Part shown: positions 2,243 to 18,366 of the stretch, one piece after another | How positions within the stretch are numbered: the first letter of the stretch is position 1 | Layout: the number at the start of each line of letters is the position of its first letter | IMG/VR virus record: IMGVR_UViG_3300007171_000042 | Coordinates: 52,384-72,383 of that record | Source: an uncultured virus (IMG/VR IMGVR_UViG_3300007171_000042) | Taxonomy: Duplodnaviria; Heunggongvirae; Uroviricota; Caudoviricetes | Direction: 5' to 3' (one strand) | Length of the DNA stretch: 20,000 nucleotides | Made by a program: the position numbers and the translations under genes | Notes under the pieces: model-generated | The model's database searches: none | What the model saw: the letters and a program-made list of their open reading frames with translations, nothing else | What the model was told of the DNA's origin: nothing

Positions 2243-4252
2243 TTAGTATCTAAAGGGAGAAGAGGTTGTACGGAATAAAGAGTTGCCTTTTCTTTCTCTA
2301 AAGTATGCATTAATTCTGTTGTCATCATTTGTATTAGAGATAATGACTTGAGTATTTAAAGACTTAGCCATAGCTAAAGTAAGGCCAAAAGAGATTACTC
2401 GGTCAACGTTTAACTTAGGAGTGAACTTAATTAATTCCTTAATCAAGACAGGGTCTAGAATCCTTGTTACACCTAAGCGTTCTTTTGTAATATTTCCTTC
2501 AGCGTCTCTCTCGACATCTACTACTTCGGTAATGTACTCGATAATCAAAGACATTAGATAGCTCTTAATGTCCTTAGTCATGTGAATACCATAGTCACGG
2601 TTAACTGTAGAGTTAGGGTGAATATCATTCAAAAACTTAGGAGTTCTTTCAAGTACTCTAGGAGACTCATTCTTATCTACACAGTGTTGGATAAAACCGT
2701 AGTCCATGTTCTCGCAAAGAGTCTTAGCATTGTAGTACTTAAGAAGCATCTTAGTATTCTCATACCAAGTCTCAATTTTCTTAGGACGACCTGTGTAACA
2801 GGCTACTACCATATTCTGCCATCCCTCTCCGTTAAGGTTATGTACTCGTTTGTAGATATAAGTTGAACCCAAAGAAGTTGAGTAGTGTGCTTGAGATTGT
2901 TTATATGGGTCCGTTCCTGCTGTATAAAGCCCATAGGGAGCATCTGAGACAGGATATTCCCAAATCTGAATACAACCCTCAATATCGTCTGTTGGTTTAA
3001 CTGGGAAGTTCGTAACAGCTTTTTTATCTGTAAACTTATGTCTTACAGATCCATCAGAAGTTATGTAGAGTTCTACGTTATCAGCAACAATCTCTTGAGC
3101 TGTTAACTTTTGTAGTTGTTCTTGAAGCAAGTCTACTGGGAAGATGTTTTGAGAAAGCTCTAAGAAACACTCCTCATGCGTGAGAGGATAGTACATTACT
3201 TCCTTAAGGTAAGTCTCAAGACCACTAGATTTTTTAATCTGTTCCCTAGACTTTAAGATAAGCTCTTTACCTTTTTCCTCATCTGCTACCCAGATCTTAA
3301 TTAAGTCTAACTCTGAAGCCTCTTCTTTGCCTAAGTGCAGTCCTAAAGACTTTTCTTCTTTAGGAACTTTCAAAGACTTAGTTCCTGGAATAAATAGTCC
3401 ATAACTTTTACCTGTTTCATTTGCTTCAACAGGAAGAAAATTATAAGCCTCGGGATTATTGAAAAGTTCTTCTAGGTCAGCAGCTTTACTCATATCTCCC
3501 GAAGTTCCGATCACAAAAGGAGAACAACGCCAACCATAAGGACTGTCAAAACACGGAGTAGTTGCCGCTAAACAACTAAGGATCTTTCCTTTTCCTCCTT
3601 CTTCCAAAAGAAAAGAAGAAAGAGTAAGACCTGCAGCTGCTTCCGTATTGTTGCCTTCGTCAAAGTTTCGTACGTGGAACTTAGACCACTCATTTCTAGC
3701 GTTAGTCTTTTTGTCTTTAAAACCTAAAGTAACCTGCTTCTTCCAGTCATCTTCGATACGAGGAAATCTAAAGTAGTCAGGTAAGTTTCTAAGACCTAAG
3801 TCTACGTAGTCTGTAATTACTTTTAAGTCAGGTTGGTTAAGAGCTGAAATAAGATTATCCGATCCCTTCTGTGTGATAGCTTTGTGGGCCATATAAGAGG
3901 AAGTCAAAACTGACTTAGAGATACGACGAGATCCTACCATTACAACTCCTTTCTTTCCGTCCTCGTGATTCTCAGCTTTATGAATAGTTTCATCTACAGC
4001 CAAGTAAGTGTCCCACAGTTGAGGTTTGTCTAGCTTACGAACTTGACGCTTACCTATCATTGTATCTATGTAGATAGACCAGTAGTTTAAGTGCCAGTAA
4101 ATAAAAGGAGAAAAATAAAATCCGTTAATAGTCACACCCTCAGTAATCTTCCTATCCTCGTTCTCCCAAAATGCAGTATACTCCTCTGAGTCTGTGTCAG
4201 GGAGATTCTTTACATTGATTAGGAATTCAGGACTATTTAGATTAGGATACAT
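2243..4252 (-). CDS. terL: Terminase large subunit
   Basis: 669 aa. Walker A-like GSRRISKS, Walker B-like FLLEEGG, coupling motif GTSG, RNase H-type nuclease motif GTDPY, late acidic NVDRV. Adjacent to portal. Confidence 0.92.
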   Translation of the reverse strand: MYPNLNSPEFLINVKNLPDTDSEEYTAFWENEDRKITEGVTINGFYFSPFIYWHLNYWSIYIDTMIGKRQVRKLDKPQLWDTYLAVDETIHKAENHEDGKKGVVMVGSRRISKSVLTSSYMAHKAITQKGSDNLISALNQPDLKVITDYVDLGLRNLPDYFRFPRIEDDWKKQVTLGFKDKKTNARNEWSKFHVRNFDEGNNTEAAAGLTLSSFLLEEGGKGKILSCLAATTPCFDSPYGWRCSPFVIGTSGDMSKAADLEELFNNPEAYNFLPVEANETGKSYGLFIPGTKSLKVPKEEKSLGLHLGKEEASELDLIKIWVADEEKGKELILKSREQIKKSSGLETYLKEVMYYPLTHEECFLELSQNIFPVDLLQEQLQKLTAQEIVADNVELYITSDGSVRHKFTDKKAVTNFPVKPTDDIEGCIQIWEYPVSDAPYGLYTAGTDPYKQSQAHYSTSLGSTYIYKRVHNLNGEGWQNMVVACYTGRPKKIETWYENTKMLLKYYNAKTLCENMDYGFIQHCVDKNESPRVLERTPKFLNDIHPNSTVNRDYGIHMTKDIKSYLMSLIIEYITEVVDVERDAEGNITKERLGVTRILDPVLIKELIKFTPKLNVDRVISFGLTLAMAKSLNTQVIISNTNDDNRINAYFRERKGNSLFRTTSSPFRY

Positions 4253-4254
4253 AA

Positions 4255-4572
4255 TTAACTAAATTGTTTCATCTTCCCATTGATCTCTTGAGATCCACGA
4301 GCTTCTGCTTTCTGTTCTTCTTTCTCTCTAAGACGATCTACTACTTCTAAAAGGGCTAAGTATTCTTTCATAGTATCTCTAAGAGATTTGATTTGTGATT
4401 CTTGACTAGCAATAACCATAGGCATAGTTCCTCCTTTGGCTGTTGGTTTCCACTCAATACGATCCTTAAGACCATTGATAGGATTGTCATCAATATATGC
4501 TCTCCACTCAGTAAGCCGTTGTTCTGCCCACTCAAGTTCTGCGGAGATATAGGATTGTTTTTTACTTGCCAT
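4255..4572 (-). CDS. Hypothetical helical protein, possible terminase small subunit
   Basis: 105 aa, coiled-coil C-terminus, ends 2 nt before terL start. Function inferred from position only. Confidence 0.6.
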   Translation of the reverse strand: MASKKQSYISAELEWAEQRLTEWRAYIDDNPINGLKDRIEWKPTAKGGTMPMVIASQESQIKSLRDTMKEYLALLEVVDRLREKEEQKAEARGSQEINGKMKQFS

Positions 4573-4768
4573 TTGTGTACTTCTTTAGAAAGTCTGTTTG
4601 ATTCATGTTCATGATATCTTCTAGCACACGTGCGTAGAAGTCTTCATCTCTGCCTGTCTTACCGTATGAGTATCCTGCTTTCCAAAATATCTTAAATGTT
4701 TCAAATAAGTTATCCTGTAAGGTCTCATGTACATAAGGCTGACTGGTATTTGGTTGGTTGTCCATCAT
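4562..4768 (-). CDS. Hypothetical protein
   Basis: 68 aa ORF tightly packed in the operon. Confidence 0.65.
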   Translation of the reverse strand: MMDNQPNTSQPYVHETLQDNLFETFKIFWKAGYSYGKTGRDEDFYARVLEDIMNMNQTDFLKKYTNGK

Positions 4769-5257: not shown

Positions 5258-5699
5258 ATAATTTCTTGTGGTTTTCTTTCATCTGATTTAAACTGTAGTC
5301 AAAAAGACTTACTTGATTAGGTCTATAAAGTTTCTTAGCCTTTCCTCTCTCGTATCTCTCTTCAAACAATCTTATCCAGTCCTCTATCATGTAGTAGTTA
5401 GTGTATCCTCTGAGTGCTGTTAAGTCTTCTCTTGGCTCTAGTGTAAGCAAGGTTTCTGACTTAATCTTAGAGGCTACTAACTTAGATGCCTTTGCAGGAT
5501 TAAATATTAATACTCCTAGACCAGATAATCTTACTTTTACAGTAGGTAACTCTTTAATCTCCTCAATGGTGTTCTTTAGGTACCACTCGTAGACAGTACT
5601 TACTTGGTCTATAGTCATACCAAGTTCCTTAGCAACATCTGAGTACACTGCATAAGTCTTGATTTGAATACTATCGTACTTATCTTTTATTGAGGTCAT
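5157..5699 (-). CDS. HU/IHF-like DNA-binding protein
   Basis: N-terminal VYSDVAKELGMTIDQVSTVYEWYLKNTIEEI...VKVRLSGLGVL resembles the HU/IHF helix-helix plus GLG beta-strand pattern. IHF-like genes occur near terL in crAss-like phages. Confidence 0.65.
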   Translation of the reverse strand: MTSIKDKYDSIQIKTYAVYSDVAKELGMTIDQVSTVYEWYLKNTIEEIKELPTVKVRLSGLGVLIFNPAKASKLVASKIKSETLLTLEPREDLTALRGYTNYYMIEDWIRLFEERYERGKAKKLYRPNQVSLFDYSLNQMKENHKKLYESLQRVHGPEPEGVKESRQSTGGSSNEDSQPV

Positions 5700-6043
5700 G
5701 CAGTTGCAACTTGTTTGTTTTCTTCAGAAACTAGAGTAGAAAGAACTAAAGTGAGAGTAACACCTTGCTTGCTAGTAGGACACAATCGTCTATTGACTGT
5801 ATTCTTTTCTAAGATACCCATCTTTCTTAGTTTAGTAATTCCGTTAGAAATTACTTGTATGGATGTGTTAAACTCACTAGAGATCTTTTCTTTTACTTCT
5901 TTGTCTAAAGTACCGTAGTATGAACTGTGGGCTAGGATACTGGTGTATAGATCTGATAATCTGTAACCTGCAAGTCTGAGTAGTACATCAATGTAGGCCT
6001 GATGCAACTTTACTCCTTCTTCATATTTACGTGCTACTTTCAT
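5696..6043 (-). CDS. Winged helix-turn-helix protein
   Basis: KEKISSEFNTSIQVISNGITKLRKMGILEK is a wHTH-like signature. ATGA overlap with the next gene. Confidence 0.65.
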   Translation of the reverse strand: MKVARKYEEGVKLHQAYIDVLLRLAGYRLSDLYTSILAHSSYYGTLDKEVKEKISSEFNTSIQVISNGITKLRKMGILEKNTVNRRLCPTSKQGVTLTLVLSTLVSEENKQVATA

Positions 6044-6077
6044 TGTTTTTGGTTGGTTTGGTTTATTTTTCCTTAAA

Positions 6078-6107
6078 CAAATATACTATACTAACAAAAA
6101 AAGTCAA
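6078..6107 (-). promoter_or_regulatory. Bacteroidota-type promoter for the packaging operon
   Basis: Minus strand TTG-N19-TATATTTG. Confidence 0.75.
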
Positions 6108-6216
6108 GTTAAATGTTAAGTCTAGACAGTAGTGTAACATCTGATATTATACGTATTAGCTAGAATCTTAATCTAAATAATTATTTTAATTGAGGATAAG
6201 TATTACACCCCGACTA

Positions 6217-6246
6217 TGGACAAAAAATTATTTAAAACTATATTTG
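6217..6246 (+). promoter_or_regulatory. Bacteroidota-type promoter (divergent)
   Basis: TGG-N19-TATATTTG upstream of ORF 6265. Confidence 0.65.
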
Positions 6247-6264
6247 TGTTAGAACAATACTACT

Positions 6265-6537
6265 ATGTCGATGGAAAAAATTAAAAAACCAACTTCCCAA
6301 GAAGTATTTGACATCTTCTTGTTGGCTTTGCAAGACGAAGACATAAAGCTTGCAGGAGACATAGGAGGATTTAAAGATGCCCTTTATCAGGGATTCAAGG
6401 ATTTTACCTATAGAAAAAAGTATACGGAAGAGATGTTGTGGGAGTATATCGAATATGCTTTAGACTCTCTAATGGATACCGACAGTCCTATGCAACAAAC
6501 TGATTATCTTACAGGTCAATCAGCTGCAGGACTATAA
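6265..6537 (+). CDS. Hypothetical acidic protein
   Basis: 90 aa ORF directly downstream of a promoter. Confidence 0.7.
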   Translation: MSMEKIKKPTSQEVFDIFLLALQDEDIKLAGDIGGFKDALYQGFKDFTYRKKYTEEMLWEYIEYALDSLMDTDSPMQQTDYLTGQSAAGL

Positions 6538-6550
6538 AATATTAACATTC

Positions 6551-6930
6551 AATCCACAGAGCAGACTGCTTACTCACAAACAACAGTATATTCGCATTTG
6601 ACACCACTGCATAAGTGTTCGTAGGTGAGGATGAGATGGTAACCTGCTAGAAGTCGGATTGTGAGAGTAGCCCTTGAGGCGAAATTGGTTTTCTCCGATA
6701 GTGTCAAAATGTTCTAGTGAAATGTAAAGTACTCTGACCTACAACTAATAGACCGTAGGCAATAAGTGGACAGAACAGAGACTTAGCTTAATTTAAGCTA
6801 TTTGGGCGTAAAAACGGCTTTACTATAATCTAAAACAGTAAGTAACATTGACAATCTTAGCCTGGAAGAATAGCCACCCTGAGAATAAATCAACGTACAA
6901 GAAATCTAAGACTGCAGTTTTGGAAGGATT
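6551..6930 (+). ncRNA. Candidate large structured non-coding RNA, class unknown
   Basis: No ORF >=60 aa, about ten complementary segment pairs including crossing helices and 5'/3' closing pairs (see findings). Confidence 0.6.
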
Positions 6931-6947
6931 ATTTTTATTTTTTAGTC

Positions 6948-6974
6948 TTGCCTTAATTAAAATTATTATATTTG
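6948..6974 (+). promoter_or_regulatory. Bacteroidota-type promoter
   Basis: TATATTTG at 6967-6974, 4 nt before ATG 6979. TTG 16 nt upstream (short spacer). Confidence 0.6.
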
Positions 6975-6978
6975 TACT

Positions 6979-7239
6979 ATGAATACAATTCTAGGCATCA
7001 TTCTCTTTTTAATCTTAGTGGTTTTACTGTATCTTGCTCGTAAGGAAGAAAAACGTAGTGACCAGTACTATAGAGATCTTTATGGCTCCAAAGAGGAAGT
7101 AAAGGATAATAGTGTCCAAATCACAGCAGAAGAAATCATAAAGATAGCTGAGGAGATTCACAAACAAGAACCTGCTCCTAAGAAAAAGAAAAGCAGACCT
7201 CGTAAGAAGCCTGCTTCAAAGGAAAGCAAAAAAGATTAA
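6979..7239 (+). CDS. Small membrane-anchored protein with basic tail
   Basis: N-terminal hydrophobic helix ILGIILFLILVVLLYLA, Lys-rich C-terminus. Confidence 0.75.
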   Translation: MNTILGIILFLILVVLLYLARKEEKRSDQYYRDLYGSKEEVKDNSVQITAEEIIKIAEEIHKQEPAPKKKKSRPRKKPASKESKKD

Positions 7240-7680
7240 TTACTTTTTGTAGAGTCTGTAGTATTCAAAGTCGGATTCTCCTCCGTTCTTTTTATACTCC
7301 ATCCACTCATCATAAAGGGCACCTTTAAATACAAAGTTGTCCCCTTCATTGATATTTACATAACTAACTGTAGTATCGAGTCCTACCTCTACCATTCTAG
7401 TAGTAAAGATCTCAACCTTCTCAGAAACGATTTTAAGCTCTTCTGAGGCAACAACTAGCTCTTCCTGTAGTTCTTTCTTCTCTTCTACCTTTTGTTCCAC
7501 TAGAGCCTCTCCTTTTGCCTTAGCAACAGATGTTACAGCAGAAGCAACTCTAAGATTGTTTTCAATCTTCTTAAGCATGATTTCTAACTCATCTACTGGA
7601 GCAGGATCAATAGCTCTCAAAGGCATAGAGAAATGGATAGCCAAAAAGAATACAGCAAAAATTCCCAATAAGTACTTCAT
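7240..7680 (-). CDS. Signal-anchored coiled-coil protein in lysis cassette (spanin-like?)
   Basis: N-terminal hydrophobic segment then coiled coil. No Cys, so no lipobox. Confidence 0.6.
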   Translation of the reverse strand: MKYLLGIFAVFFLAIHFSMPLRAIDPAPVDELEIMLKKIENNLRVASAVTSVAKAKGEALVEQKVEEKKELQEELVVASEELKIVSEKVEIFTTRMVEVGLDTTVSYVNINEGDNFVFKGALYDEWMEYKKNGGESDFEYYRLYKK

Positions 7681-7701: not shown

Positions 7702-7983
7702 TTAAAACTTTTTCATTGTGTTAATGATACGAAGTTCTGTAATAGCTGCTGAGAGAGCGCTATCAGACTTCTTAAGTGCAGTATTCATCCGATCAATCTT
7801 TAACTCTAGATTATTCATCTTTTCGTTAGAGAGTTTAATCTGGTCTGCATACCCCGTTTTAACGTCATAATACAAATAGCTAACAGCCACCAGCATACAA
7901 AAAGCAACGGCAGCAACTGGATTCTTTTTAAATTGATCAAAACTTACGGGTAATGGATTAGAGTTAATCTTCTTAGCAGTCAT
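7702..7983 (-). CDS. Membrane protein with coiled coil (i-spanin- or holin-like)
   Basis: One TM helix (VAAVAFCMLVAVSYLYY) followed by coiled coil. Directly downstream of the endolysin. Confidence 0.6.
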   Translation of the reverse strand: MTAKKINSNPLPVSFDQFKKNPVAAVAFCMLVAVSYLYYDVKTGYADQIKLSNEKMNNLELKIDRMNTALKKSDSALSAAITELRIINTMKKF

Positions 7984-8570
7984 TACTTGATGTCTTTAGA
8001 TTCGATCAAAGTATAAGTAAAAGAGTTACCTCCTACGGAAGCTGCTTTTTTACAAATTGCCATAAACGCGTCAAAGTCTGCGGATTTTTTAAAGACTTGA
8101 CATCCTTCTGACCAGTTTTCAACGTAAGTTGAGTCAGCACCTGCTTTATGAATGTTGATTCCATAAATGCCTTCAGTAATTTTTGTTTCATCATAGTTTA
8201 AATCTTTATTAGCGTCACGATAAACCTTTACGTTAGCCTTCTGTTTGAGAGCTTCGTACTTACCTTGGTGCAAACCAACATGGTGTGAACCAGGATATTG
8301 ACCAGGTACTAAGCGAGCAACTCCTTGAGCATTGTGGAATTCTTTAACTCCTTTAGTTCCAGGATCAGTAGTAGCAGGCCAGATCTTAAATTTCCACTCA
8401 CCATTCTCTTTATAAGAGATAGTCAAGTGGTCGTCAAATACGTTGGTTACTTTGGTACCAGTAGAAGAGTTACGTACACCAATGATGTTTACGTTAAAGT
8501 CTCCGTTCTCAAAGTACTTATAACCTTTTGCTTTTACAGCAGCTTCGATTTGTTCTCTAGTGTAGCTCAT
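7983..8570 (-). CDS. Putative endolysin, L,D-transpeptidase (YkuD)-like Cys peptidase
   Basis: GINIH-x12-SEGC matches the YkuD His...SxGC catalytic motif. Lies between a holin-like gene and membrane coiled-coil genes. Confidence 0.7.
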   Translation of the reverse strand: MSYTREQIEAAVKAKGYKYFENGDFNVNIIGVRNSSTGTKVTNVFDDHLTISYKENGEWKFKIWPATTDPGTKGVKEFHNAQGVARLVPGQYPGSHHVGLHQGKYEALKQKANVKVYRDANKDLNYDETKITEGIYGINIHKAGADSTYVENWSEGCQVFKKSADFDAFMAICKKAASVGGNSFTYTLIESKDIK

Positions 8571-12938: not shown

Positions 12939-13619
12939 ATGATACAGGTTATCTTTGATCATATAACAGGCTTTGGCAAGATTACAGAGCAAGACTTTAT
13001 CTACTCAGACCCTAAGGGAATAGCCTTAGGAACAGACTATAATAATTATCTAAATGAAGGCTGGGTAGAATGGCAAGGATACTGGTATAATTTAAGATCA
13101 ACTAGAATTAAAATAAGTGACTATAAACCCACCAAGACTGTAAAACGCTTAGCCAATAAAGTCCAAATATCTAAAGTAATCCTAACTCAAGAAGAAGTAG
13201 ATAGACTTCAACCTGTCTACGAAAAATACATAACCACTAAAGGATACAAAAGGGATATAAAACTAGAAGACTTCCTAGATTACTTTGCGATTCTCTACTG
13301 GCACAATGAAAAGCTTATTGGAGCATCTATCTTCAAAGAGTATAAAACAGACCAAAAAGACATAGTTGACTATCAGTTTCTGTGGGACTATGAAGACCCT
13401 AAACTATCTTTGGGAAGCGTATCCCTATACTACGAGATAGAATTAACTAAAAACTCTGCCACCTACGTATACTTAATGGGAGGCTATGAAGAAGCCTGTA
13501 TTTATAAATCTAACTTTAAAGGGTTTGAATGGTGGACAGGAACGGAGTGGTCTTCCGACTTAGACCTTTACACACAACTTTGTAAAAGAGACAACAATGT
13601 ACATATACGAACCTCATAA
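12939..13619 (+). CDS. ATE1/Bpt-like aminoacyl-tRNA-protein transferase (GNAT fold)
   Basis: Ordered family-like motifs YLNEGW, RIKISDYKPTKTVKR, VYEKY, EKLIG, WDYEDPKLSLGSVSLYYEI, YVYLMG and CIYKSNF-x2-FE. Confidence 0.75.
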   Translation: MIQVIFDHITGFGKITEQDFIYSDPKGIALGTDYNNYLNEGWVEWQGYWYNLRSTRIKISDYKPTKTVKRLANKVQISKVILTQEEVDRLQPVYEKYITTKGYKRDIKLEDFLDYFAILYWHNEKLIGASIFKEYKTDQKDIVDYQFLWDYEDPKLSLGSVSLYYEIELTKNSATYVYLMGGYEEACIYKSNFKGFEWWTGTEWSSDLDLYTQLCKRDNNVHIRTS

Positions 13620-14717: not shown

Positions 14718-14781
14718 TGGTCGACTATGAGACTATAAATAGCCTTTAGGCATAGTGCGTTACTCTTATGAGTAGGTATGG
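14718..14781 (+). ncRNA. Pistol-class self-cleaving ribozyme candidate
   Basis: P1 TGGTC/GACTA, loop ACTATG pairs with CATAGT, TAAATAG junction, GCG, P3 TTACTC/GAGTAG, GT cleavage dinucleotide, P2 CCTT/ATGG. Confidence 0.75.
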
Positions 14782-14795
14782 AAACAATAACAGAT

Positions 14796-15113
14796 ATGGA
14801 AAAGAAAATTGCTTATTTAATGAAAAGCTATGAATTTGATTCAACAGCTTGTCACGGTGAAGGTGCAGAAGTACAATGCTTTACTTTGGTATATTCAGAT
14901 AACTCTAAACTTAAGGTTAGTGATTATTTGGCTATCCCATTAATGAAGTTTGGTAATGTGCCTGTTAGATATTCAAACTATCATTGGAATTTTATTAATG
15001 AAGGTATTGTTCTAACTAAAGAACAAAGAGCATTAATAGATGATTATAGAAGTAACTATTCTAGTAGAAAAGTTCTTCCTACCCATGATTGTGTAAAATA
15101 TCTTTGGAATTAA
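14796..15113 (+). CDS. Hypothetical protein (start probably ATG 14796 rather than 14778)
   Basis: ATG 14796 lies in the AACAGATATG leader. ATG 14778 lies inside the ribozyme P2 strand. Confidence 0.7.
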   Translation: MEKKIAYLMKSYEFDSTACHGEGAEVQCFTLVYSDNSKLKVSDYLAIPLMKFGNVPVRYSNYHWNFINEGIVLTKEQRALIDDYRSNYSSRKVLPTHDCVKYLWN

Positions 15114-18278: not shown

Positions 18279-18366
18279 GTCGAAATGGTGGAATAGGTAG
18301 ACACGCAGCACTTAAAATGCTGTAATCTGAAAGATTGTGCGAGTTCGACTCTCGCTTTCGGCACCA
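18279..18366 (+). tRNA. tRNA-Leu(UAA) with encoded CCA
   Basis: Acceptor GTCGAAA/TTTCGGC, anticodon arm CAGCA-CTTAAAA-TGCTG (TAA at 18313-18315), long variable arm AATCT-GAA-AGATT, T arm GCGAG-TTCGACT-CTCGC, discriminator A then CCA. Confidence 0.95.

Follow-up and report, generated by a model that had tools for sequence, protein, structure and literature searches.

A conserved and modular structured RNA in uncultured phages of Bacteroidota-type hosts

What is encoded in the roughly 440 nt free of ORFs that separate two small genes between the packaging and lysis modules of this uncultured phage? The window (the whole stretch of DNA analysed, 20,000 nt) is the final 20 kb of a 72-kb IMG/VR record whose completeness is estimated by CheckV at 61%. 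Its portal gene (2-2218), large terminase gene (2243-4252) and endolysin-like gene (7983-8570) are located on the minus strand, and between them lies a short plus-strand island composed of a 90-aa ORF, the ~440 nt in question and an 86-aa ORF. The GC content reaches 0.42 in 6500-6799, compared with 0.26-0.36 in the flanks. The initial annotation proposed a pseudoknotted RNA of ~380 nt at this site, and the complementary words on which it was drawn are all present in the sequence.

Fold and strand of the RNA

Relatives of the locus were collected from viral contigs through the terminase (43 loci) and the 90-aa ORF (12 loci). By blastn, positions 6599-6854 are conserved at 72-85% identity in these relatives, and positions 6855-6978 are matched only by identical copies of the window. 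In the divergent phages L029, L031 and L032, little of 6044-7239 besides 6599-6854 is recognisable by blastn. RNAalifold, applied to a plain MAFFT alignment of 20 distinct sequences, returned 49 pairs, 21 of them with a compensatory change. One helix (6621-26/6642-47), which MAFFT had placed out of register, was added, and the resulting model R1 comprises 222 positions and 45 pairs. In 34 distinct rows, which come from sequences related to one another and were fitted to R1 in a way that favours the structure, 97.9% of the 1362 cells in the 45 pairs are paired, compared with 79.7% after shuffling, and none of 500 shuffles equals this value. The covariation among homologs that the initial annotation had called for is thus present, with changes on both sides in 33 of the 45 pairs in these rows. 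When the partner strand is slid by 1-3 columns, pairing in the 34 rows falls to 30-46% (at most 45.8%). Helices 6-9, which belong to the 3' domain, are paired in 96-100% of cells, with a compensatory change in 18 of 21 pairs.

The outer helix of the 3' part (P-out), which had previously gone unnoticed, was tested, like the first alignment, on plain MAFFT output. In 15 sequences its inner five pairs are 82.7% paired, compared with 62.5% after shuffling, four of the five show compensatory change, and the slid controls reach at most 48%. Similarly, in 61 distinct metagenome copies, 95.3% of the cells of the 5' domain are paired versus 76.1% in shuffled controls, and all 10 pairs of hairpins Pa and Pb carry compensatory changes. 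The remaining helices of that domain, S1 and Pc, are less well tested because the pattern-based scans fix both of them; their covariation comes from L199 and from three genome copies (L234-L236). In the bacterial-genome copies, S1 changes from GACAC/GUGUC to GAUGG/CCAUC, GAGA/UCUC and GUUAG/CUAGC. Judged by comparison of the relatives, therefore, 6599-6837 is a real conserved structured RNA whose fold is kept by compensatory changes.

The RNA is on the plus strand, the terminase and portal genes on the other. G-U combinations account for 122 of the 1362 paired cells, and pairing of the opposite strand would drop from 97.9% to 89.0%; at the base of Pc, the pair is G-U in 34 of 34 sequences. These counts also bear on a DNA-level reading of the locus, in which the pairings are DNA hairpins of a replication origin or of a packaging or recombination site. 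In favour of such an element, the locus lies between the packaging and lysis modules, it adjoins a 115-aa gene with DnaD-like source names, and in L183 it adjoins the small terminase gene. However, the G-U cells favour the plus strand only and include the invariant pair of Pc, the long-range helices close multi-branch junctions, unlike a cruciform, and a conserved promoter box stands exactly at the 5' end. We consider a DNA element very improbable.

Folding energy gives a different picture from covariation. The z-score of 6538-6940 (403 nt) is -0.05 on the plus strand and -0.17 on the minus strand, and that of the core 6599-6824 is +0.73, i.e., no better than shuffled sequence. The minimum free energy (MFE) structure of the core, computed from the single sequence, misses S1 and S7, and the consensus structure has -44.0 kcal/mol compared with an MFE of -48.8. 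Since the folding energy is at chance level, support for the RNA is comparative, not thermodynamic. The expectation that the RNA would fold better than shuffled controls therefore failed (z -0.17 to +0.73), a result that is overruled here by the comparative evidence.

At 6599-6706, the 5' domain forms a four-way junction and scores 95.7 bits with a covariance model of its own (R2, described below). It is closed by S1 (GACAC/GTGTC, 6600-04/6701-05) and contains hairpin Pa (6605-08/6614-17), hairpin Pb (GTAGGT/ACCTGC, 6621-26/6642-47), the junction strand UAGAA (6648-52) and the arm Pc (6653-58/6694-99), which is interrupted by an internal loop and capped by a small hairpin (apical pairs 6670-72/6678-80). 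AAAA follows 3' of this domain. P-out is then formed by UGUUCUAGU (6710-6718) and UCUAAAACA (6829-6837), with seven of nine positions paired in the window itself, and an internal loop separates it from S7. Inside this outer helix, the 3' domain (6724-6823) is a three-way junction, which likewise covaries. Its closing stem S7 has 7 bp (GTAAAGT/GCTTTAC, 6724-30/6817-23). The stem CTCTG/CAGAG (6732-36/6776-80) carries both the hairpin CCTAC/GTAGG (6738-42/6755-59) and a nearly invariant internal loop of 16 nt, CAAUAAGUGGACAGAA (6760-75), and is followed by a second hairpin, TAGCTTA/TAAGCTA (6784-90/6794-6800), and by the junction strand 6801-16. The whole core of 5' domain, linker and 3' domain (6599-6837, +) scores 239 bits with R1. 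No ORF of at least 40 aa is present on the plus strand inside 6599-6837 under table 11, with TAG read as Q, or under table 4 (TGA=W), and the interval is non-coding.

Much of the first drawing is borne out by covariation, namely GACAC 6600-04/GTGTC 6701-05, GTAGGT 6621-26/ACCTGC 6642-47 and TCGGA 6654-58/TCCGA 6694-98 in the 5' domain, and 6724-30/6817-23, 6732-36/6776-80, 6738-42/6755-59 and 6784-90/6794-6800 in the 3' domain. On the other hand, the closing helices drawn at 6553-56/6921-24 and 6561-64/6912-15 have their 3' halves in 6855-6978, which only identical copies match, and their 5' halves upstream of the promoter box of the RNA. The helix 6566-79/6659-70 and the CTAGAA 6647-52/TTCTAG 6712-17 pairing that crosses it are jointly paired at 74.6% versus 73.2% in shuffled controls, and 33 of 500 shuffles equal this value; in CTAGAA/TTCTAG only AGAA/UUCU is constant, and this pairing is absent from wider relatives. 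TTCTAG pairs instead with the 3' end of the core, as part of the outer helix 6710-6718/6829-6837. The proposed pseudoknot is thus left with no supported crossing helix, and the conserved unit is ~240 nt rather than ~380 nt. A comparison of every column with every other, meant to reveal additional or crossing pairs, was swamped by the relatedness of the sequences and gave nothing usable. An alternative pairing of AGUC with GACU, joining the junction to 6780-83 and noticed by eye, is in competition with two of the supported helices, and L210 and L190 do not keep it.

Downstream of the core, 6838-6945 is an unconserved tail that has no blastn match in non-identical relatives. It contains a long-loop hairpin (TCTTAG/CTAAGA, 6855-60/6906-11), a T run (6918-21) and the purine word GGAAGGAT (6922-29), and at the same position relatives have different hairpins, as judged by eye. 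A consensus scan returned no plus-strand terminator.

Breadth of the family and known RNA classes

A pattern made from the two most conserved words recovered 48 viral stretches. R1 matches all 49 sources (these stretches and the window), 39 of them at 90 bits or more. The other ten (L183, L187, L217, L200, L215, L179, L184, L195, L191 and L205) score low, having only the 5' domain in common and differing in their 3' parts. The RNAs of L184, L215, L179 and L191 reach ~400 nt and are set in ORF-free stretches of 1.1-1.2 kb. It was also observed that in these four (L184:2430-2830 and L215:2431-2830, for example) the RNA ends in AAGGGGA, followed after 4-5 nt by an AUG that opens a very short frame, variable in length (4-10 codons or more), and then by 500-700 nt without an ORF. 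This AAGGGGA-N-AUG 3' end characterises the L184-type relatives, was not recovered in most of the subfamily of the window and was not applied to the window.

R2, a covariance model of the 5' domain, was built from 25 sequences, and its score on the genome of the window (95.7 bits, E 2.6e-20, a single copy) is high by construction because the window is among those 25 training sequences. Independent members are given by the metagenome loci, of which R2 matches 75 of 80 (61 distinct sequences); both domains are present in 34 of the 80. The family is defined by the 5' four-way junction, and the window has all of its elements: S1, Pa, Pb, AGAAG, Pc with UCGGR/YCCGA, UA and S1'. A further pattern, GCAATRRGTGGACARAA, was rejected, as only 14 of its 118 stretches are true by nhmmer and the rest are a protein motif. 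Among 185,579 species genomes, nine pattern matches were obtained, of which only two are true. One bacterial family has a copy in 3 of 151 genomes; the RNA is therefore sporadic there and not a housekeeping RNA, and this spread is of the mobile or prophage element type. No neighbouring protein recurs throughout the wide family.

Scanning of the whole window with Rfam 15 at gathering scores gave only a tRNA and a Pistol ribozyme, both elsewhere in the window. The Pistol self-cleaving ribozyme (14719-14781, +) scores 46.1 bits, where the gathering score is 34.5, and its end lies three bases inside ORF 14778-15113. The tRNA is tRNA-Leu with anticodon UAA (18279-18366, +), and the same tRNA is found 1.9 kb from the RNA copy in the relative L221. 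At E up to 10, the stretches 6000-7300 and 6595-6830 (236 nt) gave chance-level scores of 10-29 bits against cut-offs of 33-90, and relaxed thresholds gave nothing on L215. The RNAs in the loci of 42 relatives (20 + 13 + 9 loci) also have no RNA-family match; the 20 loci came from the first pattern scan and are mostly chance protein-motif hits, and the 13 loci gave only tRNA genes elsewhere.

Three known classes deserve separate mention, two of them suggested by the likeness of the motifs ACAGAA, GAGGA..AAGUC and GUGUCAAA to RNase P or group I introns. Bacterial RNase P (RF00010, type A) has no match in the 72-kb record at E up to 10, under conditions in which the control was found in 11 of 14 genomes. 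Its topology differs as well, since the strand after the ACAGAA loop pairs locally (6732-36/6776-80) and not with a distant 5' strand, unlike the P4 pseudoknot that CR-I and CR-V form in RNase P. For group I introns (RF00028), which sit inside a gene between exons and have a P3/P7 pseudoknot, the model also finds nothing at E up to 10; the RNA lies between genes and has a box of its own, and no crossing helix is supported. As for tmRNA, with its tRNA-like domain and tag-peptide frame, ARAGORN reports tRNA-Leu alone for the window and detects no tmRNA at the loci of ten relatives. The initial annotation had seen no hallmark of tmRNA, RNase P or group I introns, and neither the models nor ARAGORN contradict it.

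An RNA associated with a reverse transcriptase (retron or DRT/UG27 type) was also considered; RNAs lying beside UG27 reverse transcriptases are described in gut phages in PMC9226505. No RVT_1 domain occurs in the 72 kb (61% complete) or among the scanned neighbours, and this candidate was set aside.

By blastn, neither 6000-7300 nor the RNAs of two relatives match any of 50,697 phage records, and no description of this RNA was found in the literature searched. Fremin et al. (2023) reportedly catalogued 8,495 candidate RNAs from IMG/VR, and this catalogue may list the RNA without a description. The sample numbers of six relatives do not occur in six supplementary text files of PMC10690425. The family is thus new in the sense of being absent from Rfam 15 and from the literature searched, the latter including the supplements of Fremin et al. 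(2023) in part. The central proposal of the initial annotation, a folded RNA of an uncatalogued class on the plus strand opposite to the late genes, stands on the covariation, the G-U pairs and the outcome of its suggested Rfam check, which returned no matching family. Taken together, this is an uncatalogued, modular RNA family that is widespread in uncultured phages of Bacteroidota-type hosts.

Promoter, neighbours and mode of action

A -7 box of the Bacteroidota type (TAnnTTTG), TATATTCG, is located at 6587-6594 (+) immediately before the RNA. We take such a box to be the -7 element of the Bacteroidota primary sigma factor. In 23 of 25 distinct full-length members, the last base of TA..TT[TC]G lies 3-6 nt upstream of the model start (the first paired base), the background density of this motif in these loci being 0.00095 per nt; the remaining two members have TAATATTG in its place. 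The RNA was initially assigned to the promoter at 6217-6246 only, which is at odds with its own TAnnTT[TC]G box at 6587-6594.

The 90-aa acidic ORF upstream (6265-6537, +) has its own box, TATATTTG, at 6239-6246. It is a real conserved gene with 57 homologous protein clusters, none of them named, and it belongs to no Pfam or PHROG family. It is present in 21 of the 25 distinct full-length members and missing in four, all of which still have the box and the RNA. The RNA is therefore independent of the 90-aa protein, which had been suggested as its partner and is not an obligate one. Moreover, no homologue of this ORF was found among the ORFs compared at loci with only the 5' domain. Between its stop codon and the promoter box of the RNA lies a small hairpin, ACTG/CAGT (6565-6587, +); by eye, relatives have other hairpins at this site, e.g., ACTTAC..GTAAGT and CTACA..TGTAG. 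This hairpin may be the terminator of the 90-aa ORF.

The most constant neighbour is the 115-aa gene (5696-6043, -), a homologue of which lies upstream of and divergent from the RNA in 24 of the 25 distinct members. It has 104 homologous clusters, two of which carry the source name 'DNA replication protein DnaD', and no Pfam or PHROG match; its product has the look of a small winged-helix protein. A link between the RNA and this gene in the distant phage L195 was dropped, because the blastp match (E 1e-4) was not upheld by profile comparison (probability 2%, E 0.024). Farther away, a 226-aa ORF (12939-13619, +) has a weak match to ATE_C, the C-terminal domain of arginine-tRNA-protein transferase (26.9 bits versus a cut-off of 25).

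Downstream of the RNA, the 86-aa membrane-type ORF (6979-7239, +) also has its own TATATTTG box (6967-6974). By eye, this box ends only 4 nt upstream of the ATG, and the mRNA would be nearly leaderless. A small ORF on the same strand 3' of the RNA occurs in only 5 of the 25 distinct full-length members; in 20 of them the next gene is convergent and encodes 81-218 aa. Where the 86-aa ORF meets the convergent 146-aa gene, there is a terminator-like hairpin with a T run (7190-7217, -), and the same hairpin is behind a sub-threshold L20_leader match.

Because 20 of the 25 members have a convergent gene next, we read the RNA as independently transcribed and trans-acting. In full, this reading holds that a stable structured non-coding RNA, acting in trans, is the product of a stand-alone gene at 6599-6837 (+), and we assign it a probability of roughly 55%. 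The main competing explanation is a cis-acting leader, i.e., a riboswitch, attenuator or processive-antitermination element that controls downstream read-through or translation, with the 5' domain as the sensor. Such a leader would account for the position of the RNA directly behind a promoter box, for the peptidase gene that begins 15 nt after the RNA in L200, and for the same-strand ORFs that follow it in L183, L217 and the L184 group; the layout of a conserved 5' domain and a variable 3' part also resembles that of an aptamer and expression platform. However, the downstream 86-aa ORF of the window has a promoter box of its own 4 nt before its ATG, the 3' domain is a conserved, covarying three-way junction and not a terminator/antiterminator pair, and no riboswitch or leader family matches. 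With a convergent neighbour in most members and few same-strand ORFs, the RNA is not a downstream-gene leader in its own subfamily. Control in cis is thus an unlikely explanation for the window, albeit the least unlikely of those set against the trans-acting gene. In other lineages, codirectional genes stand behind the 5' domain, and hence the ancestral role may have been cis-acting.

If the RNA is a stand-alone, trans-acting gene product, host RNA polymerase would start at about 6598-6600, and the transcript would stop within the unconserved tail, short of the next promoter box at 6967. The near-invariant junction and the Pc arm of the 5' domain may form the docking surface for a partner that many hosts or phages share; our best guess is a tRNA, or else some other component of the machinery for translation or RNA processing. 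The 3' domain, which is specific to each lineage, would then serve as an adaptor. Regarding expression, a look-up gave seven public RNA runs, and contigs of four runs were examined. Metatranscriptome X4 has one contig of 151 nt on 6634-6774 and one on 7338-7476, and X5 has one on 7210-7459. These are read-sized contigs of low depth from which ends, strand and level are unreadable; X1 and X2 may be DNA, DNA carry-over is possible, and stretches without a contig carry no information.

Possible partners and closest analogues

One specific version of docking is that the RNA is catalytic or handles tRNA, either as a new ribozyme or as a minimal RNA that docks at the elbow of tRNA and is related by function to RNase P or T-box Stem I. 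The junction nucleotides AGAAGUYGG and CCGAUAGUG are near-invariant across phages that share little else. In many members, Pc has U-G-G-U-A and U-G-A-G-A on opposite strands flanking a 5-bp hairpin. The elbow-docking module consists, as described in PMC3664808, of two T-loops with the conserved cores AG..A and UG..A, and the two pentamers of Pc resemble these T-loops. The likeness is at the level of motifs only, the AG..A core is not clearly present in Pc, and the order of the pentamers is reversed relative to the described module. The same loop of Pc fits a loop-E motif of the AGUA/GAA type equally well, and the window's own subfamily has other words at this place, UUGUGA and AUUGGUU. Regarding tRNA genes, in L195 nine consecutive ones (2475-4588) lie directly upstream of the 5'-domain copy on the same strand, but of the 10 loci scanned, only 2 have tRNA genes within 2.5 kb. 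The T-box models do not match the window RNA, nor do the RNase P models; RNaseP_bact_a and Intron_gpI give nothing in its own genome at E up to 10, nor does any Rfam family on the 236 nt at that threshold. A catalytic or tRNA-handling RNA is, in our estimate, doubtful, and slightly more so than the leader.

In its boldest form, this idea would make the 5' four-way junction the core of a new RNA class with which phages of several bacterial phyla grip a universal cell component, the tRNA elbow being the candidate; this is a speculative extension to which we give little weight. If true, the ribosome, T-boxes and RNase P would be joined by a fourth natural tRNA-docking RNA, or else the class would be a new ribozyme, and the swappable 3' domains would set what happens to the bound partner. 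More generally, should the conserved domain bind tRNA or the translation apparatus, Bacteroidota phages would have a new way of handling host or phage RNA.

Whatever its partner, the trans-acting RNA gene that we favour is of interest for several reasons. RNA classes with strong covariation, a near-invariant core of ~100 nt and a wide spread are rare, and such new classes have repeatedly opened new biochemistry, such as riboswitches, ribozymes and ornate RNA assemblies. Its design is modular, with one conserved domain and interchangeable second domains. The RNA is common in contigs of uncultured freshwater and marine phages, and its size of ~240 nt suits probing, pull-down and structure work. 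In practice, annotation can now draw on an alignment, on two covariance models and on exact coordinates.

Since no family model or cultured record matches the RNA, the nearest known systems are analogues and not relatives. Closest in kind are the large ornate RNAs ROOL and GOLLD, both of which are in Rfam, whereas the window RNA matches no Rfam model at all. Their lengths are roughly 580 and 800 nt, compared with ~240 nt here. Like the window RNA, ROOL and GOLLD (see also 10.1101/2024.12.08.627333) are borne by phages or prophages as stand-alone genes, have elaborate multi-domain folds derived from covariation, sometimes adjoin tRNA genes and have no assigned function. Self-assembly has been reported for both of them. 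The second analogue is the cultured Cellulophaga crAss-like phage phi14:2, for which bioRxiv 10.1101/2020.03.07.982082 describes abundant lncRNAs at the g004-g005 and g005-g006 junctions. R2, run on its whole record (NC_021806), gave nothing at E up to 1, the best score in the first 12 kb being 13.4 bits. The likeness to phi14:2 is that a phage of a Flavobacteriia host has long gene-free stretches, transcribed above most of its genes, to which no function has been assigned (10.1101/2020.03.07.982082). The two systems differ in that the RNAs of phi14:2 are early transcripts located at the left end of the genome, whereas the window RNA stands behind a host-type promoter box between the packaging and lysis genes.
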